A stretch of 64,000 nt of DNA from positions 23,498,001-23,562,000 of the forward strand of contig OZ024753.1 of the NCBI GenBank assembly GCA_964016885.1, read 5' to 3'. Position 1 is the first letter of the stretch; each line of letters opens with the position of its first letter. The DNA comes from Eledone cirrhosa (taxonomy: Eukaryota). Positions 4,774 through 64,000 of the stretch are shown here, one piece after another. The position numbers and the translations under genes were made by a program. Below the pieces are notes generated by a model. It ran no database searches. It saw only the letters and a list, made by a program, of their open reading frames with translations, and was not told the DNA's origin.

Positions 4774-5279
4774 CGAACATTATAATAAATATTCGGTAAA
4801 CCCATACGTACATATATATATGTGTGCATGTATGTATTCATATACATACTACTGTGCGTCTGTTCACATATATGTATGTACGTATACATACTTATATTTA
4901 GGTATCAGCCGTACTAAGTGTGAGAAATGAAATTTCGTTTCATTCTTTTCCATTTATCGTTTTCGGTATGCCCGGCCGACTAACTCACTCGATATGCAAA
5001 GTATATACTTTCAGGCGTTCAATCATCTGACAGAAAGGTATACGATGCTGACGATAGCTAATAAGCTTGAAACTAGTACATCGTTCCTGTGTCAGTGTTG
5101 AACAAAACGGCAACGATAGTTGCTAAACACTGTACGGCATAATTCGAGCTGTTTGTTTACAAACAAACCGAACATTATAATAAATGTTCGGTAAACCCAT
5201 ACGTACGCATATATATATGTGTGCATGTATGTATATATGTACATACTACTGTGCGTCTGTACACATATATGTATGTACG

Positions 5280-5285
<6 letters not shown>
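4774..5285 (+). mobile_element. Retrozyme-like HHR repeat family 1, about 1.3 tandem monomers (period 395 bp)
   Basis: CGAACATTATAATAAAT.TTCGGTAAACCCATACGTA recurs at 4774 and 5169; no credible coding frame; contains an HHR. Confidence 0.75.
5042..5084 (+). ncRNA. Minimal type I hammerhead ribozyme (family 1)
   Basis: Helix I ACGATG/CATCGT; CTGACGA 5048-5054; short helix II AGCT-aata-AGCT; GAAA 5069-5072; palindromic helix III ACTAGT; GUA site. Confidence 0.8.
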
Positions 5286-5322
<37 letters not shown>

Positions 5323-5600: not shown

Positions 5601-5703
5601 ATATACATAACGAAGGAAATGTGGTAAGGAACCAGATGTACAATAACGCACCAAAGTACTCAATACTTAGGGTAGTAGAGTGGGTAATAGGAACGAGTAG
5701 GAT

Positions 5704-5796
5704 CCCGACGGCTGAGCTCAAGCCGTTTCGACGGTTAATTCTGGAGTATATGAACATTTTTATCCTCGTAAATGAATAACCGAACTTCTCAGGGGG
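5704..5796 (-). ncRNA. Type I hammerhead motif with C3-A8 mismatched core (CTGAGAA), probably impaired
   Basis: Minus strand reads CCCC-CTGAGAA-GTTCGGTTA...TTAACCGTC-GAAA-CGGC-ttgagctca-GCCG-TC-GGG; homologous to 23394-23487. Confidence 0.6.
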
Positions 5797-6884
5797 CAAT
5801 TCCATATATGGTAAAAGTGATTGTCACAAGGATTAGTCAAAAGTTTGTTGTTGAGACACATGATTCTATCATGGTATTTTGTGGAAGGTAGGGAACTTGC
5901 CAGTAGAAGAAAGAGGGAGGAGGAGTGGAGGAAACCCAGTCGTGCGTTGAAAGTGACAACTACAGCAGAACCCTAAGGATAAGAGGTCGAGAGAAGTATA
6001 CTAGAGAGGGGAGGGGGAGGAAGTCGAAACAATAAGTAAATCTATATGGAGTAAATATATAAAAAATATAAAAAATATAAAAAAACACAATTTCTGGTTA
6101 CTATTCCCCTTCCACAATCACCAAATCTCTCACTGGTACTGCTAAACTATAGAAAAGTTTAATAGGTGGGACGGAATACTAAATACGAGATTGTAGTGAA
6201 AGAATTTTATGAGTTAGTAGTAATCGGCCAAATTTATCTTACAATGACAGGTCAACAAGTAGGGAGCCAAAATACTAAAATAAAAAAAACTAATACGAAA
6301 TAATAATTCAGAGTTGCGAAACTAATACGAAATATTTATTCAGAATCCCGAAAATGAATACTAATACGATATATAAGAGTACTGCAAAAATACATAAATT
6401 CTAATACAAACTACATAAATGCTCGTACGATATATATGAAAAACTAATACGAAAAATTTAATACGAAAAATTAATTCAGAATCCCCCCCCCCCCCCAAAA
6501 AAAAATAAATACTGATATACGAAAAACTAAAGCAGAGATACCACTAAGAAATCTAGAAATCACGGAAATGGGGCAGCAATCAGATAAGAAAGCAAGTATC
6601 TGGGGTCTAGCACATCTGCTATAAAAAGCGGAATCGGCCAATTCTATCATAGAATAGTGGGGAGGGGTTGAGGCTACAGAGGACCGAAGGGCTGCCTCGG
6701 GGTGGGCGAGAATGTGAAAAGAACGACGACAAAGAGGAGATCTGGGGTGGAAGGACTATGAAGTGATGGGGGAAGATGGAAATATAGAGGAAACGATAAA
6801 AAATATATAAGAAAATCTTCCGTCTACCTTTGTAAGCAGGGATTACCCATTACAAAGTCGGCAAGTGGGGTGTTACAACCCTTG

Positions 6885-7520
6885 TCCCCCCCTCCCGGGT
6901 CATTATGGGGTTTGAGGGCGAGGTAAGTCCTACGCAATCTATGTTTGCATGCAGTTACCAGTTCGTTTTTCTTGTTTAGGAGTTGGTCCGTCGAAAACAG
7001 CATTTGTAATGTTCCTCCGAGCATAAGTTACATGGACGGCGTCCTCCCGTGTAAGAGTTGGCTCTGGACAGTAAGCTCCAAGTGATATTATAGGTTATAT
7101 TGTTATCTTTGAGGTTCCAGATGTGGTCCGAAAGTGTAGTGGCGTGACGCCGGGCCGGGTTTCGGAAAGTATGTCTGTGTTGGTATAGCCGGGTCTTGAA
7201 GTCACAAGCGGTTAATCCTATATAAGTTTGTTGGAGGAGTCCGTCCTCGCGTTGCACTGGTAGATCACATTACGATCTCTGCATCTGTTGTCGAGGGGGC
7301 AAATAGATCCATCAGGCCAGTTACACCTCCTGGTGGGCTCTCCACTGCTATCTAGGTTCTTTCTTCCATAGTGATTGAGTTTTTGTTGTTAGAAGAGACG
7401 ATGTTTTGTGCAAAGTTAGGTGTGGTGCCGTAGGAGAGTTTGGTGGTATATTTGTTGATTATGTTGTGGTAGCGGTGTTGTAGTGGGAAGTGTTTTTCGA
7501 TGAGCCTAAAGAAGATTTGC
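6885..7520 (-). pseudogene. Frameshifted GIY-YIG endonuclease C-terminus of a PLE ORF
   Basis: ORF pieces IFFRLIEKHFP..., YIGLTACDFKTRLYQHRHTF..., CNLCSEE and LLNKKNELVTACKHR lie in three frames and match the 21114-22286 protein. Confidence 0.9.
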
Positions 7521-8750
7521 GTAGGACTTACCTCGCCCTCAAACCCCATAATGACCCGGGGGGGGGGGGCTAGACAAGGGCTGTAACACCTCACTTGCCG
7601 ACTTTGTAATGGGTAACCCCTGCTTACAAATGTAGACGGAAGATTTTCTTATATATTTTTTATTGTTTTCTCTATATTTCCTTCTTCCCCCATCCTTTCC
7701 TACTCCTTCCACCCCAGATCTCCTTCTTTGTCGTCGTTCTTTTCACATTATCGCCTACCCCGAGGCAGCCCTTCGGTCCTCTGTAGCCTCAGTACCCCCC
7801 CCCCTATTATATGATAGAATTGGCCGATTCCCCTTTTTATAACAGATGTGCTAGACCCCAGATACTTGCTTTCTTATCTGATTGCTGCCCCATTTCCGTG
7901 ATTTCTAGATTTCTTAGTGGTATCTCTGATTTAGTTTCTCATATATCAGTATTTATTTTTTTTTTTTGGGGGGGGGGGGATTCTGAATTAATTTTTCGTA
8001 TTAAATTTTTCGTATTAGTTTTTCATATATATCGTACGAGTATTTATGTAGTTTGTATTAGAATTTATGTATTTTAGCAGTACTCTTACATATCGTATTA
8101 GTATTCATTTTCGGATTTCTGAATAAATATTTCGTATTAGTTTCGGAACTCTGAATTATTATTTCGTATTAGTTTTTTTTTATTTTAGTATTTGGCCCCC
8201 TACTTGTTGACCTGTCATTGTAAGATAGATTTGGCCGATTACTATTAACTCATAAAATTCCTTCACTACAATCTCGTATTTAGTATTCCGTCCCACCTAT
8301 TAAACTGTTCTATAGTTTAGCAGTACCAGTGAGAGATTTGATGATTGTGGAAGGAGAATAGTAACCAGAAATTGTGTTTTTTTATATTTTTTATATTTTT
8401 TATATTTTTCTATATATTTGCTCCATATAGATTTACTTATTGTTTCGACTTCCTCCCCCTCCCCTCTCTAGTATACTTCTCTCGACATCGTATCCTTAGG
8501 ATTCTGCTGTAGTTGTCACTTTCAACGCTCGACTGGGTTTCCTCCACTCCCTCTCCTTCTTTCTTCTACTGGCAAATTCAGCTACCCCTACCTTCCATAA
8601 AATGGCATGATGGAATCATGTATCTCAACAACAAACTTTTGACCAATCCTTGTGACAATCACTTTTACCATATATGGAATTACCCCCTGAGAAATTCGGC
8701 TATTCATTTACCAGGATAATAATGTTCATTTAGTCGGGGTCCTACTCATA

Positions 8751-9075
<325 letters not shown>

Positions 9076-12629: not shown

Positions 12630-15600
12630 TTACGGGGCCAATGCACCCTTCGCCCAGAACGGGTCGTAGTTCTGTGTGTTGATGGGGAGAGGGGAAGAAA
12701 TAGGCCTGTGTGGCAAAGAAAAAGAGGGGGGCATTTGAGTTTCAAGTGTCATTGTGTCATTGTCCAGGTTTGCTCGTTTGAGACGATCAACGGAAACCGT
12801 TTCCCTGGAACCCCGAATGTCCAGTGTGAAATGTTTGTCTGTGCGAGCAAGCACACGATAGGGTCCAGAGTACGGCCGTTGAAGAGGGGTCTCACGGCGT
12901 CGTCTCTAACGAACACATGGGTCCACAAGGCAATATCCCTTGGGACGGCAGTTTTTACAGTCTGCTTCCTAGTGCCCATCGGTGGTAGATCCTTGAAATA
13001 AGAGTGAAGCCGGGACACGTAGGAAGCGGGGTCCTGCGAAGTCAGGTCAAAAGGGGCCAGCATTTGCCCCGGTAACGCCAGAGGCGTACCATAAACTAAT
13101 TCGGCAGAGGAGAACCCAAGGTCCACCTTTACCGTCGACCGAATACCCAACAATACAATGGGTAGGTACTCGCTCCAACGTGAAGAGTCCATGGAAGCCC
13201 TTAAGGAGGCTTTGAGCTGCCTGTGGAATCTTTCCACCATTCCGTTTGAGGCTGGGTGGTAAGCCGTGGTTCTTATTCGAGTAGCCCCCAGGATTTGGGT
13301 TAGCTCTCGGAAGAGGTTAGACTCGAATTGACGACCACGATCCGTTGTTATGGTGGTTGGTACACCGAAACGAGCGATCCACGAAGATACGAGGGTACGG
13401 GCTGTGGTTTCGGCGGTGATATCTGTTATAGGGACGGCTTCAGGCCAACGCGAAAAACGGTCAACAATCGTCAAAAGATACGAAAAACCACGACTAACCG
13501 GCCACGGGCCGACGATGTCCACATGAATGTGACGAAATCTTGCATCGGGGCAGGTGAAGGTTCCGAGAGGAGCCTTAACATGTCTATGAACTTTCGATAC
13601 AGGAACGACACCAAGCAATGTCACGTCTCATACCAGGCCAGAAAAATCTGGCTGTTATGAGTTTTACTGAGGCTGATACTCCTGGGTGAGAAATGCCATG
13701 TAAAGCGAGAAACGCAGTTCGTCGATGTTCCACTGGGACTAGAGGTCGTGGTGAGTCCAACGAAACACCACACAGTATCTGTCCGTCAGCAGTTGAGATC
13801 GGAATGTATTTCAGTTTGCAATGTACAAACTCTGGCGATGTAACATCCAACGATTCGAGAGTGGGTTGGGCAGCTGCCATTCGATGTAAATCTATCTCCT
13901 CGGAAGACGAAATCGATGCGATCGGCAGGCGAGACAGCGCATCGGCCGCTGTATTCAAAGAACCCGGAATATGTTGAATGTCGTTCGTGAACTGTGAGAT
14001 GAAGTCCAGATGTCTCGTTTCTCTGGGCGAGTATTTGTCTGCCTTAGTTCGAAGAGCAAACGTCAAGGGTTTATGATCAGTGAAAATGGTGAATGTTCTA
14101 CCTTCAAGTACATGAGCAAAATGTTTCACTGATAAATAAATTGCTAATAGCTCCCTTCCAAAGGTGCTATAGCGAGTTTCTGCAGGCTTTAACTTCCTCG
14201 AAAAGAACTCGAGTGGTTGCTGTACCCCATCACCCTCCTGATGTAAGACTGCGCCCACGGCGCTATCCGAAGCATCAACAGAGAGCGATAGCTCGGCGTT
14301 GGGTACTGGTTGGGCGAGCAAAGACGCGTTCGCTAACGCCTTTTTTCACTTTTTTTAAATCATCAAGCTGCGTTTTATTTAAGGAAATGTCCATATTCTT
14401 ACGCCGGCAACCCTTAAAAATCTCTGTCAACGAGAACAGCAATTTGGAACAACCAGGTACGAATCGCCTATAAAAATTTACAAGGCCCAGGAATTGACGC
14501 AATTGACGCAGTGAACTTGGCGGAGGCAAATCCGATACTGCCTTAACCTTCTCAGGAAGAGGTCGAATACCATCGGCGTCAATCAGATGGCCTAAAAATG
14601 TTAGTGAAGTCGAGCCGAAAACACACTTGGAAGCATTAATTCGAACATTATATCTCTGTAAACGACGAAATACGAGATCCAGATGCTTTGAATGCTGCTG
14701 AGGGGAAGAACTAGCAATCAACACGTCGTCGATATACGTATACACAAAATCCAGGCCCCGAGTAATATCATCCATAAATCGTTGGAAGGTACTTGCGCGT
14801 TTCTAAGGCCGAAAGGCATAGTGAGGAACTCGAACGATCCGAAAGGAGTGACAATAGCAGTCTTTGGGATATCCTCCTCGTTAACCGGAATTTGATTATA
14901 AGCGCGGATCAAATCAAGCTTAGAAAAGATTCTGCAACCCTGCAATGACGACGCAAAATCCTGCAAATGCGGGATTGGATAACGGTCAGGCACAGTAATC
15001 GCGTTTAAGCGTCGGTAGTCACCTGTCGGTCTCCAATCCCCAGAAGATCTAGGTACCATATGTAGAGGCGATGCCCAAGGACTTGTGGAGCGCCGAATTA
15101 TTCCCAATTCCAGCATGTGGTCGAATTCAAGACGTGCAGCTATCAACTTCTCTGTAGACAATCTTCGAGGACGTGAGAAAACAGGTGGACCTGTAGTGGA
15201 TATGAAGTGTTCAATCGCATGATCCGGACTAGTTATTCGTAACTTTCCCTGCGTCAACTGAGGGAATGAATGTAGCAGGCTTTGATACTGGTTGCCCACT
15301 TCAGCCAAGAAAAAGGAAGGGCTGACGGTGGCGACGTCCGGCTCTGAACCCTCGAAAGAAAGGCCTGTTTCATCATCAACAAGGCGTTGTCTGCGAATGT
15401 CCACCAACAAGGAAAAATGGTGGAGAAAATCCGCTCCCAAAATGGCGTATGGCAAGTCGGCGATAGTAAACTTCCACCTCAAATCACGCCGCAAATTTTT
15501 TAACCGAAGAGGAAGCGAAATTTGCCCGTACGTTCGAATGGCCGTGTGGTTAACTGCTCGTAGATTTATATCTGCTTCGGCTGGGCTTTTTTTGAGATAA

Positions 15601-15743
15601 CTGACTGGCCAAATACTCAGCGACGCGCCAGTATCGACAAGGAAAAATTTTTTTGACCGCAGGTCGTATACGAAAAGATGGCGGTTCGGTCGGTTTTCCC
15701 AGAGTTCACTAGCCGCTCCTAGTGGCTCTGCTTTGCGTTTCCC
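12630..15743 (-). pseudogene. pol: Gypsy pol (protease, RT, RNase H, integrase) with about 4 frameshifts
   Basis: Protease FLVDTGA; [26 protein letters not shown] and YIDD; RNase H VDASD..ELLAIY..FTDHKPL; integrase [23 protein letters not shown]. Split across five ORFs. Confidence 0.95.
15700..15743 (-). promoter_or_regulatory. -1 programmed ribosomal frameshift signal (G GGA AAC + hairpin) at the gag/pol junction
   Basis: Heptamer at 15743-15737 in the gag frame, 6-nt spacer, then CAGAG-C-CACTAG-gagcgg-CTAGTG-aa-CTCTG. The -1 frame is open through to the protease DTG. Confidence 0.85.
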
Positions 15744-16489
15744 GATCTCTTGTAATCACAGGGCGTGCGACAACGTTGCGCCCTACTGCCGAAGTTAGAA
15801 TGGTACCAACACAACGAAGAATTATTGTTGCCTGCGTTGTAGTGCTGGCGATGAATAGAGGACGGCGGCGAACGATACCTCAAACGTTGAGAAGGCTCTC
15901 TGTGATGTACCGTCAAATCTTCTACCTTTTTGGTGAGAGCTTCAATCAACTCCAACAGTTTGCCGTCGGCCACAGAAGAACTGCGTGGAGGGACGCACGC
16001 TGAAGCCACATAAGGATTATGCTGATTGCTGTTCGAGTCCACCTCAAGTATCTTATCCGCGGACGCGGCAAGTTGCTCTAATGAATTCTTCTCTAAACTA
16101 TTGACCAATATTCTTTGCGCACTTGGTGGTAGGCGTGAGAAAAAAAGTTGCTTTATGAAGGGGGTGTCAATCCCCTGGGAGTCGCTCAACTCCCGCAAAT
16201 GTCGCAAATAGGAGCTCGGCTTCCTGTCACCCATTTGAGCATCGTCCAACAACTCCCGAAAACGGCTCTCTACCGACTTGGTATTTCGGCGAAGGATTTC
16301 TTTTTTTAATGAGCCGTAGGTAACGTCGGCGTCTAAATCCGTCACAACGTCCTTCACCGAGAATGCCAAGGAAACAGGTAGGCCATTGATCAGGACCTTC
16401 AGCTTATGCTGTTCCTTTGTCTTCGTCAATTCGAAGAAACATTCCAGCTGCGCAAACCACAACTTGATGTCGCCTGCGAAGGACGGCAA
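15719..16489 (-). CDS. gag: Gypsy gag
   Basis: [14 protein letters not shown]-terminus, [16 protein letters not shown], and C-terminal CWYH..FG..A..C..PC knuckle. The true start codon is uncertain (nearest ATG is out of frame). Confidence 0.9.
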
Positions 16490-17016
16490 AATGTTGACTC
16501 ATGGTGCCACGTATTTGATGACTTTTTGGTGTTGGTCAATAGTTAGCCAGGTGTTGCTGCTGATTGCTGGTAATTTTTTTCTTTAAAAAAAAATATTCTA
16601 AAGAAAATTTTAATAATAAAAAAAAATCATTTTCTATGAAAATTAATGGTAAGAAAATCCAAGATGGCTGATTTAAAAATGTGTCCGTGATGAAGCCGTC
16701 ATGAGGCACGATGCAGCCAATCAGATGGCTGGGATTGGAGAAGACAAGCTGAACGCGGGAAAACGAAATATCTCCATTTGTAATTTCCACAGAATGTTGG
16801 AAGCAAAATTCTATTTCCAGAGAAATCCTTTTTTTTTTTTTTTTTTTTTTTGTGTGTTGTATTTTTGTGTTTGTCTGTATGCGTGCTATAACAAATGGAA
16901 TATAATGAATTTTATGGACTTACGCTAAGTGATTCGGACATTCCAAATGTTAAGCCATTCCACATTGCCGTTAAAAAGAATTTCGGCCTCCAATAGGCTG
17001 CGTTTTCATTCTTTAT

Positions 17017-19463: not shown

Positions 19464-19493
19464 TATATATATATGTATATATATATAAATATG

Positions 19494-19532
<39 letters not shown>

Positions 19533-19537
<5 letters not shown>

Positions 19538-19581
19538 TATGTATACGTACATACATATATGTATACAGACGTACAGTAGTA

Positions 19582-19678
<97 letters not shown>

Positions 19679-20323
19679 CATGCACACATATATATATGTA
19701 CGTATGGATTCACCGAACATTTATTATAATGCTCGCTGTGTTTGTAAACAAACATCCCGAATTAAGCCGCACAGTGTCTAGCAACTACCGTTGCTCATTC
19801 GTTCAACACTGACAAAGGAGCGCTGTACTTGTTTCAACCTTATTAGCTATCGTCACCAACGTATACCTTCCTGCCAGATGGTTGAACGTCTGAAAGTATA
19901 TACTTTCCTTAAGCATATTAACGGCTGAACAGCCTAGTTTGCATACTATTGTACGTCTGTATACATATATGTATGTACGTATACATACTTATATTTAAGT
20001 AACAGCCGTACTAAGAGTGAGAAATGAAATTTCGTTTCATTTTTTCCGTTTATCGTTTTCGGTACCTCGGCCGATTAACTGACTCGATATGCAACTTAGG
20101 CTGCTCAGCCGTTAATATGAATAAGGAAAGTATATACTTTCAGACATTCAACCATCTGGCAGGAATGTATCCGTTGCTGACGATAAATAATAAGCTTGGA
20201 ACTAGTACAGCGCTCCTTTGTCAGTGTTGAACAAATGAGCAACGATGGTTGCTAGACACTGTACGGCTTAATTCGGGATGTTTGTTTACAAACACACCGA
20301 GCATTATAATAAATGTTCGGTAA
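19533..20323. mobile_element. Retrozyme-like family 1: inverted pair of circularly permuted monomers (19533-19944 minus, 19941-20323 plus)
   Basis: Both arms are homologous to 4774-5285 but start at different points of the unit. The HHRs at 19821-19861 (-, GTGACGA) and 20172-20212 (+, GGAA) carry core mutations. Confidence 0.75.
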
Positions 20324-20352
20324 ATATATATATATATATAGGAACCAGTAAG

Positions 20353-20446
20353 ACCCCGACAGCTGAGCTCAAGCCGTTTCGACGGCTAATTCTGGACTAA
20401 ATGAAAATTTATCCTGGTATTTAAATAGCCGATCTTCTCAAGGGGT
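20353..20446 (-). ncRNA. Type I hammerhead ribozyme, U3:A8 core variant (inverted-arm copy)
   Basis: Reverse complement of 23394-23487. Confidence 0.75.
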
Positions 20447-21113
20447 AATTCCATATATGGTCAAAGTGATTGTCAAAAATCAGTAGTAATTCTGTGGTTG
20501 CAAATTAGTAGGGGAGTTGGTGGCTAAACCTGCCAGTAGGAGAAAGAGGGGAGGGGTGGAGTAGACCCAATCAAGCGTTGGTAGTGCCAGCTACAGCTGG
20601 GCATGAGGTCAAAGAAGATACAGGGGAGGGGGAGGAAGTTGGAACGGTAGGTAGAACAATGGAGGGTAGAAATATATAGGAAAGAAAAGAAAAAATACTG
20701 AGAGTGAAGAAAAGCAAATAAGTGTAAAGAAAAAAGTAAAGTAAATTAAATTCTACGACCTAGGTCTCAGGCTATTGTAAGGCTAGAATAAAATAAATAA
20801 AGAAAGAAAGAAGTAAAGAAATAAATAAATAAAGAAATAACGAAATAAGTAAAAGAACTAGGTGGGACGGAATAGGCAAGGACCCTTTTAAGAGGTATAA
20901 GTACGTAAATGATACGGTGACGGGTCAACAAAAGGGGCCAAAATACTAAAGAGACTACCACGAAATAAACAATAAAGGTTTCCATCCCGGGCCAGCAACG
21001 ACCCAGTGCAGCAAAGTGAACTTGTACGAGATAATAATTCTGAGTCCCGAGAAAAATATATACTAATGCTAACTCTAAAAGATCTAAAACAAGCTACATG
21101 AATTATTCCTAAT

Positions 21114-22286
21114 GGATTATTCCTAATAGCCAAACTCACTGATATGTTTCCTGCATTCGGTGGTGGATTGTACCGTGATGATGGGCTCCTTACCCTTAAA
21201 GGGTACAACCCCAGTAGTACAGATCGGGTCCGGAAACAATTAATCAGATTCTTCCGCGACTGGGGATTTAAAATAACCCTACAAACGTATCTGACCCGAA
21301 TAAACTTCCTGGACGTGACCCTCGACCTCGAAAACGACCTGTACTACCCATACAGGAAACCTAATGACAATCTGCACTACATCCACCGCCGATCAAACCA
21401 TCCTAGGAACATCACAAACAACCTGGTCAAAAACATCTCCCTCCGCATATCCCGTTTGTCAGCTAATGAGCGGATATTCGATGAACATGCGCCTTATTAC
21501 AACCAGGCCCTCAAGCGGAGTGGTTTCCGGGAGGAAATATCCTACTGTCCAGCTCCCATTAGCGGAACCAGCAGGAGACACCGCCGCTCACGCAATGTAA
21601 CATGGTTCAATCCTCCCCACAACGAAGAGGTGACAACTCCCATCGGGAAACTATTCTTTAGGCTCATTGAAAAACACTTCCCATTACAACACCGCTACCA
21701 CAACATAATTAACAAAAATACCATCAAACTCTCTTACAGCACTACACCAAACTTCGCACAAAACATCGTCTCCTCTAACAACAAAAAACTCAACCCCGAT
21801 GGCAGAAATAACCTAAATAGCAGTGGAGAACCGACCAGGAGGTGTAACTGCCCGGATAGATCTATTTGCCCACTCGACAATAGATGCAGAGACCGTAATG
21901 TGATCTACCAGTGCAACGTGAGGACGGATACCTCCAACAAAGCCTATATAGGACTTACCGCATGTGACTTCAAGACCCGGCTATACCAACATAGACATAC
22001 CTTCCGAAACCCGGCCCGGCGTCACGCCACTACACTTTCGGGCCACATATGGGACCTCAAGGACAACAACATCACCTATGATCTCACTTGGAGATTACTG
22101 TCCAGAGCCAATTCTTACACGGGAGGACGCCGTCCGTGCAATTTATGCTCGGAGGAAACTTTACAAATGCTGTTTTCGACGGACCAACTCCTAAACAAGA
22201 AAGATGAACTGGTCACTGCATGTAAACATAGATTGCGTAGGACTTACCTCGCCCTCAAACCCCATAATGACCCGGGGGGGGGGTAG
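21114..22286 (+). CDS. 5'-truncated PLE protein: RT motif C, thumb and GIY-YIG endonuclease (Naiad-like by motif; inference)
   Basis: GLYRDDGL, INFLDVTLDL, PYRKPND..YIH..SNHP, WFNPP, CNC..CPLD..C, VIYQC..YIGLT..FKTRL..H, CNLC.EE, LLNKKDEL..CKH. The frame is open but begins at the inversion junction. Confidence 0.93.
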   Translation, partial: GLFLIAKLTDMFPAFGGGLYRDDGLLTLKGYNPSSTDRVRKQLIRFFRDWGFKITLQTYLTRINFLDVTLDLENDLYYPYRKPNDNLHYIHRRSNHPRNITNNLVKNISLRISRLSANERIFDEHAPYYNQALKRSGFREEISYCPAPISGTSRRHRRSRNVTWFNPPHNEEVTTPIGKLFFRLIEKHFPLQHRYHNIINKNTIKLSYSTTPNFAQNIVSSNNKKLNPDGRNNLNSSGEPTRRCNCPDRSICPLDNRCRDRNVIYQCNVRTDTSNKAYIGLTACDFKTRLYQHRHTFRNPARRHATTLSGHIWDLKDNNITYDLTWRLLSRANSYTGGRRPCNLCSEETLQMLFSTDQLLNKKDELVTACKHRLRRTYLALKPHNDPGGG

Positions 22287-23393
22287 ACTAGGGCTATAAC
22301 ACCCCACTTGCCGATTTTGCAATGGGTAACCCCTGCTTGCCAAGGAAGACGTAAGATCTTCTTTGTATTCTTTTATCGCTTCCTTTATTTCCTTCCCCCC
22401 TCTCTCCTTAGTCCTTCTACCCCAGCTCTTCTCCTTTGTCGGCGTCTTTTCTCGCCCACCCGAGGCTGCCCTTTGGCCCCATGTAGCCTTAGTACCCCCC
22501 CCCCTCCCCTAGTCTATGATAGATTTGGCGGACTCCGCCCTTTATAGCAGTTGGCTTAGACCCCGGATACTTGGCCCCTTTTTCCGACCGCTCCCACTAT
22601 TCTCTGTGCCCTCTATATTTCTTAGTGGCACTTATGCCTTATTTTTTCGTTTCAGTATTTCTTGCTTCGCTTTTCTCCTGGGCGGTGTGGATTCTGAATT
22701 TATTTCTCCGTATTCTACCTTTATTTCGTACGAACTTTCATGTAGCTTGTTTTATATCTTTTAGAGTTAGCATTAGTATATATTTTTCTCGGGACTCAGA
22801 ATTATTATCTCGTACAAGTTCACTTTGCTGCACTGGGTCGTTGCTGGCCCGGGATGGAAACCTTTATTGTTTATTTCGTGGTAGTCTCTTTAGTATTTTG
22901 GCCCCTTTTGTTGACCCGTCACCGTATCATTTACGTACTTATACCTCTTAAAAGGGTCCTTGCCTATTCCGTCCCACCTAGTTCTTTTACTTATTTCGTT
23001 ATTTCTTTATTTATTTATTTCTTTACTTCTTTCTTTCTTTCTTTATTTTATTCTAGCCTTACAATAGCCTGAGACCTAGGTCGTAGAATTTAATTTACTT
23101 TACTTTTTTCTTTACACTTATTTGCTTTTCTTCACTCTCAGTATTTTTTCTTTTCTTTCCTATATATTTCTACCCCCCATTGTTCTACCTACCGTTCCGA
23201 CTTCCTCCCCCTCCCCTGTATCTTCTTTGACCTCATGCCCAGCTGTAGCTGGCACCACCAACGCTTGATTGGGTCTACTCCACCCCCTCCCCTCTTTCTC
23301 CTACTGGCAGGTTTAGCCACCATCTCCCCTACTAATTTGCAACCACAGAATTACTACTGATTTTTGACAATCACTTTGACCATATATGGAATT

Positions 23394-23487
23394 ACCCCTT
23401 GAGAAGATCGGCTATTTAAATACCAGGATAAATTTTCATTTAGTCCAGAATTAGCCGTCGAAACGGCTTGAGCTCAGCTGTCGGGGT
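23394..23487 (+). ncRNA. Type I hammerhead ribozyme, U3:A8 core variant
   Basis: Helix I ACCCC/GGGGT; core TTGAGAA 23399-23405; helix II GA(T)CGGCTA/TAGCCGTC with a large loop; GAAA 23460-23463; helix III ACGGC/GCTGT capped by palindrome TGAGCTCA; GUC site 23480-23482. Confidence 0.78.
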
Positions 23488-23578
23488 CTTACAGGTTCCT
23501 ATTACCCACTCTACTACCTCAAGTATTGAGTACTTTGGTGCGTTATGGTCCACCTGGTTCCTTACCACATTTCCTTCG

Positions 23579-23661
<83 letters not shown>

Positions 23662-24152: not shown

Positions 24153-24212
<60 letters not shown>

Positions 24213-24434
24213 CAATTAAGTTAAAAATGTACATCCATATATGTATACTGAAATACTAGTATGCATATGAATACACACACGTATACATATGTAGATGTAC
24301 CAAGTCTTTCACTGGTTACTTTACTGTGAGTATCCAGCTATTCTGTATGTAAACACACAGACAAACCGGTTTTTAGAGTCATACTGATTTTTGAGGAAAC
24401 ACCTTTCCTCTATTCTGCAGAAAGCCAGACAAGG

Positions 24435-24479
24435 AATATTGAACTAGTTTCGTTGTTGTTACAACTCATCAGCAATATT
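24435..24479 (-). ncRNA. Minimal type I hammerhead ribozyme (inverted copy)
   Basis: Reverse complement of 24986-25030. Confidence 0.92.
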
Positions 24480-24985
24480 TACCTATCTACCGGCCTTTCT
24501 GGAGAATCGTAAAAGCACATATCGTTATATGCTTTTTCTATGAAAATTAGTAGTGGGCAGACTAATTTGCATAGAGTGTGAGTACGTACCGGTTCAACGG
24601 AGACGATAAAAACAAATAACGAAACGAAATTAAATTTCGTTTCGTTTGCAGTAAAGTAACCAGTAAAGTAGCCAGTAAAGTAACCAGTGAAAGACTTGGT
24701 ACATCTACATATGTATACGTGTGTGTATTCATATGCATACTAGTATTTCAGTATACATATATGGATGTACATTTTTAACTTAATTGTTTAAGCGTCAGTC
24801 ATACAAAAGTGAGTTGCAAACGAAACGAAATTTAATTTCGTTTCGTTATTTGTTTTTATCGTCTCCGTTGAACCGGTACGTACTCACACTCTATGCAAAT
24901 TAGTCTGCCCACTACTAATTTTCATAGAAAAAGCATATAACGATATGTGCTTTTACGATTCTCCAGAAAGGCCGGTAGATAGGTA

Positions 24986-25030
24986 AATATTGCTGATGAG
25001 TTGTAACAACAACGAAACTAGTTCAATATT
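24986..25030 (+). ncRNA. Minimal type I hammerhead ribozyme, monomer 1
   Basis: AATATTG-CTGATGA-GTTGT-aaca-ACAAC-GAAA-CTAG-TT-CAATATT: 7-bp helix I, canonical core, 5-bp helix II, palindromic ACTAGT helix III, GUU site after 25023. Confidence 0.95.
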
Positions 25031-25451
25031 CCTTGTCTGGCTTTCTGGAGAATAGAGGAAAGGTGCTTCCTCAAAAACCAGTATGACTCTAAAAACCGGT
25101 TTGTCTGTGTGTTTACATACAGAATAGCTGGATACTCACAGTAAAGTAACCAGTGAAAGACTTGGTACATCTACATATGTATACGTGAGTGTATTCATAT
25201 GCATACTAGTATTTCAGTATACATATATGGATGTACATTTTTAACTTAATTGTTTAAGCGTCAGTCATACAAAAGTGAGTTGCAAACGAAACGAAATTTA
25301 ATTTCGTTTCGTTATTTGTTTTTATCGTCTCCGTTGAACCGGTACGTACTCACACTCTATGCAAATTAGTCTGCCCACTACTAATTTTCATAGAAAAAGC
25401 ATATAACGATATGTGCTTTTACGATTCTCCAGAAAGGCCGGTAGATAGGTA

Positions 25452-25496
25452 AATATTGCTGATGAGTTGTAACAACAACGAAACTAGTTCAATATT
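25452..25496 (+). ncRNA. Minimal type I hammerhead ribozyme, monomer 2
   Basis: Identical to 24986-25030. Confidence 0.95.
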
Positions 25497-25917
25497 CCTT
25501 GTCTGGCTTTCTGGAGAATAGAGGAAAGGTGTTTCCTCAAAAACCAGTATGACTCTAAAAACCGGTTTGTCTGTGTGTTTACATACAGAATAGCTGGATA
25601 CTCACAGTAAAGTAACCAGTGAAAGACTTGGTACATCTACATATGTATACGTGTGTGTATTCATATGCATACTAGTATTTCAGTATACATATATGGATGT
25701 ACATTTTTAACTTAATTGTTTAAGCGTCAGTCATACAAAAGTGAGTTGCAAACGAAACGAAATTTAATTTCGTTTCGTTATTTGTTTTTATCGTCTCCGT
25801 TGAACCGGTACGTACTCACACTCTATGCAAATTAGTCTGCCCACTACTAATTTTCATAGAAAAAGCATATAACGATATGTGCTTTTACGATTCTCCAGAA
25901 AGGCCGGTAGATAGGTA

Positions 25918-25962
25918 AATATTGCTGATGAGTTGTAACAACAACGAAACTAGTTCAATATT
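25918..25962 (+). ncRNA. Minimal type I hammerhead ribozyme, monomer 3
   Basis: Identical to 24986-25030. Confidence 0.95.
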
Positions 25963-26250
25963 CCTTGTCTGGCTTTCTGGAGAATAGAGGAAAGGTGTTT
26001 CCTCAAAAACCAGTATGACTCTAAAAACCGGTTTGTCTGTGTGTTTACATACAGAATAGCTGGATACTCACAGTAAAGTAACCAGTGAAAGACTTGGTAC
26101 ATCTACATATGTATACGTGTGTGTATTCATATGCATACTAGTATTTCAGTATACATATATGGATGTACATTTTTAACTTAATTGTTTAAGCGTCAGTCAT
26201 ACAAAAGTGAGTTGCAAACGAAACGAAATTTAATTTCGTTTCGTTATTTG

Positions 26251-26310
<60 letters not shown>

Positions 26311-63700: not shown

Positions 63701-64000
63701 TACAATATTTCTCTACACTATTTCTCTATAATATTTCTCTTAATACTTCTCTATAATATTCCTCGACAATATTTCTCTCCAATATTTCACTATGATATTT
63801 ATCTACAATATATCTCGACAATATTTCTCTGTAATATTTCTCTACAATATTTCTCTATAATATTTCTCTATAATATTTTTCTACAATATTTCTCTATAAT
63901 ATTTCTCTATACTATTTATTTACAATATTTCTCTACAATATTTCTCTATATTTCTCGACAATATTTCTCTATAATATTTCTCTACAATATTTCTCTACAA
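36759..64000. repeat. 13-bp satellite array, consensus CTAYAATATTTCT, about 2,100 monomers, running off the window
   Basis: Continuous tandem AATATTTCTCTAC/AATATTTCTCTAT units; rare variants recur at fixed long spacings. Confidence 0.99.
61045..63431 (+). repeat. Three copies of an about 65-bp non-satellite insert (SINE 3'-end-like) at 61045, 62226 and 63367
   Basis: AAAATAAAATACCAGTAATGCACTGTTTAATTGCTGGCCTTGT(G/T)CCTAAAGTAGAAACAATTATT; spacings 1181 and 1141 bp. Confidence 0.85.

Follow-up and report, generated by a model that had tools for sequence, protein, structure and literature searches.

A dispersed family of 466-bp hammerhead ribozyme repeats in Eledone cirrhosa, inserted into (TA)n tracts with the paired ends of Penelope-like elements

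The window is a stretch of 64,000 nt of the Eledone cirrhosa genome (GCA_964016885.1, contig OZ024753.1, positions 23,498,001 to 23,562,000 of the forward strand), and its positions 24154-26306 hold a two-armed insertion in a (TA)n microsatellite. The inverted arm (24211-24650, minus strand, 440 nt) corresponds to unit positions 26-465, where position 1 is window 24790, and differs from unit stretch 25281-25720 at 2 positions. It is 5'-truncated, and beyond its 3' end, at site A, the left (TA)n tract of the target begins to be read (24154-24211). The direct arm (24673-26255, plus strand) opens with a 5'-truncated piece that corresponds to unit 350-466, continues with full units at 24790-25255, 25256-25721 and 25722-26187 and closes with a tail, and it is followed by the right (TA)n tract (26255-26306). 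Both truncated 5' ends meet at a joint of short 12-nt repeats made of unit sequence (24651-24672). TRF reports a 466-bp period, 3.4 copies and 99% identity at 24673-26257, and 2 positions vary among the three full periods. The initial annotation, which described about 3.4 near-identical units plus an inverted copy, set in (TA)n and free of open reading frames, is confirmed on all of these points; the longest stop-free frame in the array is 60 aa and the longest ATG frame 50 aa. The array has a low GC content of 35%.

Site A (unit 462-466; 25251-25255 on the plus strand in the first full unit) occurs in each unit and is one of two positions at which 3' ends fall across the family. The tail (26188-26255, plus strand) covers the 68-70 nt from A to a second site, B, where it ends, and contains a 13-bp hairpin (26217-26245). 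Both sites are putative starts of reverse transcription (RT).

Each unit carries one canonical type I hammerhead motif, at 24975-25046, 25441-25512 and 25907-25978 in the direct arm (plus strand) and at 24419-24490 in the inverted arm (minus strand). The CTGATGA cores lie at 24993, 25459 and 25925 on the plus strand and at 24472 on the minus strand, and the predicted cuts in the direct arm follow 25023, 25489 and 25955. In the first unit the cut triplet GUU occupies 25021-25023, in agreement with the position given by the initial annotation. GUU is a weaker cleavage triplet than GUC. The motif has a 6-bp helix I with a bulge, a 4-5-bp helix II and a 2-bp helix III closed by a palindromic loop, with ACUAGU at helix III. 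By the definition in PMC4209133, the minimal hammerhead of metazoan Penelope-like elements (PLEs) lacks helix III and has a helix II of 7-8 bp and a helix I of 4-5 bp, so that the annotated "intact minimal hammerhead per unit" stands as to one motif per unit and is corrected from minimal to canonical type I. A minimal PLE-type hammerhead was rejected on the helix lengths given above.

In the Rfam comparison that had been proposed as a check, no match reaches the gathering score, and the best match below it, Hammerhead_HH9, is found in 4 of 4 copies (38.6 bits vs 52, E 1e-7). A complete type I hammerhead is present in at least two consecutive units at an Rfam score below the gathering threshold. 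The long imperfect stem said to extend helix I is real, as 24950-25060 folds at -37.5 kcal/mol (z -4.7) and 0 of 200 shuffles fold as well. When the monomer is folded as a circle, helix III is absent although both other helices, I and II, are present, a predicted structure that would fit activity in the dimer only. Covariation was scored on 11 distinct sequences from the GUU subfamily, the GUC subfamily and the 429-bp sister family described below; core conservation inside the GUU subfamily was left out because 26 loci had been picked by exact core match. Paired positions are maintained in 96% of cells, against at most 50% in slid controls, and 8 of the 19 named pairs change on both sides; the 11 sequences are related, so the figure is not a probability.

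Several other elements occupy the window. Those at 20338-23580 and 5607-8752 are 5'-truncated coding PLE insertions of Hydra type, each with an inverted arm and a single terminal tail. The array has the same layout of inverted arm, tail and (TA)n, as had been noted from the sequence at first reading. Hammerhead-like motifs at 1894, 2946, 3534, 26406/26565 and 27783, in short inverted elements in (TA)n, are probably ends of other PLE families. Frames resembling those of an LTR retrotransposon (RT, RNase H and integrase) lie in several pieces at 12749-16498 on the minus strand, and a 13-bp tandem repeat with more than 2,100 copies extends from 36759 to the window end at 64000.

The 466-bp repeat is widespread in the 3.0-Gb genome. 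Exact 33-nt ribozyme cores number 5,142 and cores with another cut triplet 2,517, the two sets overlapping slightly (5 of the first 100 rows), which gives about 7,500 cores. The genome-wide copy search suggested in the initial annotation therefore yields a dispersed family in place of the one-off local duplication that it had named as a refuting outcome, and the 84 loci parsed share no longer element of which the unit could be the terminal repeat. The forward-strand counts of ends, 740 at A and 1,099 at B (the latter in clean (TA)n), are not comparable with each other, since overlapping matches inflate the reverse counts and the pattern used for A fails to catch the principal GUC spelling. The approximately 1,100 forward B ends suggest roughly 2,000 insertions. 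Copies are dispersed and non-coding, range from dimers to multimers of tandem units, and lack LTR, PBS and PPT; unselected loci (n = 27) have a median of 2.2 units (range 0.7-22.9).

The 84 parsed insertions belong to the GUU subfamily and remained after five loci repeating the same insertions were dropped. They comprise 39 selected for similarity to the unit in the window, 26 first places on one chromosome and 19 selected for similarity to a long-array unit, and the choice of these 19 by haplotype means that the long class is over-sampled and young. Outside this pool are 17 further insertions, 12 GUC-subfamily loci and 30 sister-family loci. The GUC subfamily (L120, L157-L186) has a 469-bp unit in which helix II carries a compensatory change, and ends at A and B as in the GUU subfamily. 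An older sister family (window 4783-5300, 1-150 and 19464-20330; L127-L156), with a 429-bp unit in L136, has a covarying hammerhead (GUA/GUU), paired ends, a 57-nt tail and 4,131 first-look candidates.

The 3' ends of arms fall at site A (unit 462-466) or site B (unit 68-70), 70 nt apart and away from the ribozyme cut, and are followed by (TA)n; the 5' ends are scattered. Both ends are at A or B in 52 of the 84 insertions, and these are 51 A+B, 1 A+A and 0 B+B (p 1e-14 against independent choice). The rest comprise 6 insertions with one other end and 26 that appear one-armed, 7 of which retain a stub with the complementary end. Position lists from one chromosome arm, partly covering the same loci, give 31 A+B among 34, and among the 3 exceptions the B+B case and one A+A case each consist of two distinct insertions. 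The GUC subfamily and the 429-bp sister family repeat the paired-end layout. None of 31 subfamily-defining sites lies within unit positions 451-78, and the tail is the part best kept between subfamilies (67/70); such conservation would suit a region bound by protein. PLEs are known for an inverted arm and for a tail at a single end (PMC8557442), and the tail has been traced in vitro to two internal RT starts from which both DNA strands are extended (PMC11167929). The pairing of A with B matches these two starts and is the Penelope "tail" signature.

The genome also encodes candidate enzymes. Dozens of intact 821-aa open frames carry DKT, YRDDG, CxCx5C and GIY-YIG-like motifs, which mark the Hydra clade of PLEs, a clade that targets (TA)n (PMC8557442). 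These motifs, together with the Atlas neighbours, point to Hydra-type PLE proteins, which Pfam and PDB searches do not recognise as PLE. The (TA)n target is common to the 466-bp family and the coding PLEs of the host. No look-alike of the A-B region was found among 20 PLE 3' regions and 8 longer PLE loci, a small part of 32,499 candidate places in the genome; the best PLE 3' region scores 37 against it, and the sister family 52.

The window array is one insertion of a young, genome-wide, non-coding hammerhead repeat family with two fixed 3' ends. That the family is a retrozyme moved by PLEs is highly likely. The fuller reading, to which we give a probability of roughly 0.6, is that of a non-LTR retrozyme, or non-autonomous PLE, moved by a Hydra-clade enzyme that copies a predicted circular 466-nt RNA. 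Multimeric transcripts would cleave themselves as double hammerheads in which ACUAGU pairs with the next unit, and the monomers would be ligated to circles that, with a 2-bp helix III, would cleave no more. A PLE protein dimer may bind the conserved A-B region and nick both (TA)n strands, with one cDNA primed at A and one at B. Each cDNA would then circle the template a variable number of times before the two 5' ends are joined. Part of the events would start from multimeric RNA, and part of the arrays would grow later in DNA.

The nature of the template is constrained by the cut site (unit 234/235), which is crossed by 128 of 144 arms, at least twice by 59 of them, with one indel in 354 crossings. 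The 5' ends do not pile up there (3 within 230-240 vs 3.4 expected). Because RT does not start at the ribozyme cut and the crossings are clean, the RNA that was copied is either circular or a multimer left uncut. Circular monomers were probably the main template, and evidence for a monomer stage comes from long identical arrays, from the lack of fixed differences between arms and from rare variants fixed throughout an insertion. As read from the assembly, L048+49 carries arms of 6.9 and 13 units, and its 9,054 bases contain 0 variants; L195 has 4.3 + 3.7 units with 0 variants, and up to 20 identical units occur across both arms of some insertions. Fixed arm differences number 0 in 4,113 positions at 9 loci with at least two units in both arms, vs 41 in 9,979 at 30 short loci. 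Nineteen rare variants are fixed in every unit of both arms, at 12 of 49 eligible loci, and DNA-level expansion can also fix a variant in all units. Each insertion nearly always holds a single haplotype across both arms, the exceptions being L033 and L063, where the arms differ.

A somewhat unlikely account is that the two-start PLE integration used mostly an uncleaved linear multimer, and that unequal exchange or slippage in DNA restored the length lost to 5' truncation; the ribozyme would then trim RNA or act later, and circles would be by-products or absent. It draws on L055, L080 and L199, three loci at which a variant occupies the same rank in both arms, so that heterogeneous multimeric RNA was read there; these cases speak for a single RNA, or a single source locus, as the origin of both arms. 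If sources were as variable as present loci, many rank-matched variants would be expected, yet only 2 rank-specific variants are common to both arms, vs 81 unshared and the 19 fixed throughout (a third matched row, L031+32, is a majority-letter effect and is not counted). The same account gains from clear DNA-level expansion, indicated by periodic variants in one arm only at seven loci (L031+32, the left arm of L050+51, L074, L077+78, L189+90, L191+92 and L193+94). Against it, no locus is periodic in both arms, and L048+49 would need either a 13-unit identical parent, of which there is none among 39 scored of 225 candidates, where L048+49 itself is the longest array of its haplotype, or two mutation-free expansions. 

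Several points count against the circular-template reading. The lengths of the two arms show a weak correlation (rho 0.35, p 0.18 in 16 unselected insertions; 0.34, p 0.014 in 52), and array length is not significantly related to variant density. The weaker GUU triplet of the window units, the differing arms of L033 and L063, the over-sampling of long arrays and the lack of an A-B look-alike among the 20 PLE 3' regions belong here too. So do two published results: of 9 Xenopus dimers, 8 failed to cleave (bioRxiv 10.64898/2026.07.22.740005), and an anole PLE used unprocessed RNA in vitro and did not need its own ribozyme (PMC11167929). Unprocessed RNA as the main in vitro substrate also speaks for the uncleaved multimer, as does local amplification, the model of the 2026 preprint (bioRxiv 10.64898/2026.07.22.740005). 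The rolling-circle copying proposed in the initial annotation is accordingly upheld in part: identical multi-unit arrays in both arms favour it, and some loci contradict a template made of monomers only. That the insertions are a genomic record of rolling-circle target-primed RT, with up to about 20 identical units per event, is a proposition with roughly even odds.

It is very improbable that linear self-cleaved monomers were the template and that multimers arose as the enzyme jumped from end to end at the cut site, given the absent pile-up of 5' ends, the nearly intact crossings and the single haplotype of most insertions. At L088 (2764-3550) one arm switches haplotype between 235 and 303, beside the cut site, from the GUU to the GUC variant, as such jumps would allow. 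At L007 (1197-1500) a pair of 3' ends lies at unit 233, a single base away from the predicted cut, and the two face each other across one (TA)n tract, which would also suit such jumps; ends at 233 were found at no other locus and never in the GUC subfamily. Together with the covarying helices, these two loci are at most indirect hints of transcript self-cleavage.

Equally hard to credit is a unit that is the pseudo-LTR of a coding PLE after 5' truncation, or a local or satellite duplication without an RNA stage of its own, for although PLE terminal repeats do carry hammerheads (PMC4209133), head-to-tail units here reach 31 without an ORF, every two-armed locus has both outer ends at fixed sites in (TA)n, and the 26 one-armed loci share no internal sequence behind the unit, in a comparison that covers about 115 of roughly 2,000 insertions. 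The unit adjoins a PLE frame at 1 of the 84 loci, L038 (also L207), where it directly adjoins the interior of a broken Hydra-type frame, with no (TA)n in between. This join speaks for such an origin, and from its letters a template switch and a nested insertion with deletion would fit equally.

The class, its link to PLEs and the rolling-circle model are already in print (PMC4209133, PMC7229834, bioRxiv 10.64898/2026.07.22.740005), and what is new is the genomic evidence. Circles were proposed as the template of PLE copies longer than one unit (PMC4209133), and cleavage and circles were shown for other animal retrozymes, with PLEs named as likely movers and rolling-circle copying by a PLE enzyme proposed in the Discussion (PMC7229834). 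A PLE origin has since been argued from co-occurrence and trees, with local amplification favoured (bioRxiv 10.64898/2026.07.22.740005). The 466-bp family resembles the non-LTR retrozymes of coral, mussel and axolotl (PMC7229834) and of vertebrates (bioRxiv 10.64898/2026.07.22.740005) in its tandem non-coding units, each with a single canonical type I hammerhead, and in its low GC, thousands of copies and co-occurrence with PLEs. Its unit is not at the long end for such elements, as had been supposed, since 466 nt lies inside the 51-972 bp range in the preprint. Cleavage and circles of those retrozymes were shown by experiment, whereas the present family is known from sequence; unlike the available text of those papers, the present analysis resolves the anatomy of the insertions, with paired starts, inverted arms, (TA)n and one haplotype. 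In the literature surveyed, with subscription journals largely outside it, no paper parses retrozyme insertion ends likewise, and supplements may contain insertion analyses.

With the Hydra clade (PMC8557442) and Poseidon of anole (PMC11167929), the family shares (TA)n targeting, hammerheads and an inverted 5'-truncated arm, together with a tail confined to one end, RT starts inside the element, which are putative here, and extension of both DNA strands. It differs from them, as they are described in those sources, in having no ORF, a tail of 68-70 nt vs 30-40, many more head-to-tail units and a ribozyme that is canonical, not minimal. Non-autonomous Chlamys PLEs such as MRC1 (PMC8557442) are likewise non-coding dependants of PLEs with multicopy head-to-tail insertions. 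As described there, their 3' ends are similar to those of the autonomous partners, and their clade lacks canonical hammerheads, in contrast to the 466-bp family, for which no partner was found by sequence among 20 PLE 3' regions.

Proposals on PLE movement of animal retrozymes, and on whether their arrays are written from circles at integration or grown later in DNA, date back to 2014-2020; the case made in 2026 relied, within the text available, on co-occurrence and trees. The 466-bp family supplies mechanistic genomic evidence for that movement and a defined substrate for the question of circles or DNA growth: a 466-nt unit, two starts, a (TA)n target and intact host enzymes. It is a good and unusually clear test system for a known idea. 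If true, the rolling-circle reading would explain the birth of animal retrozyme arrays, the inverted arms of Penelope and the origin of new satellite arrays. In runs X4 and X6, labelled as other organisms, about one unit plus 30 bases is present on one or two contigs with a single variant, as tandem DNA and circular RNA would give alike.

The family also shows the seeds of satellite arrays at several ages. At L191+L192, L031+L032, L189+L190 and L193+L194, one arm has 15-31 units with higher-order patterns, and these loci are young satellite arrays seeded by the 466-bp element.
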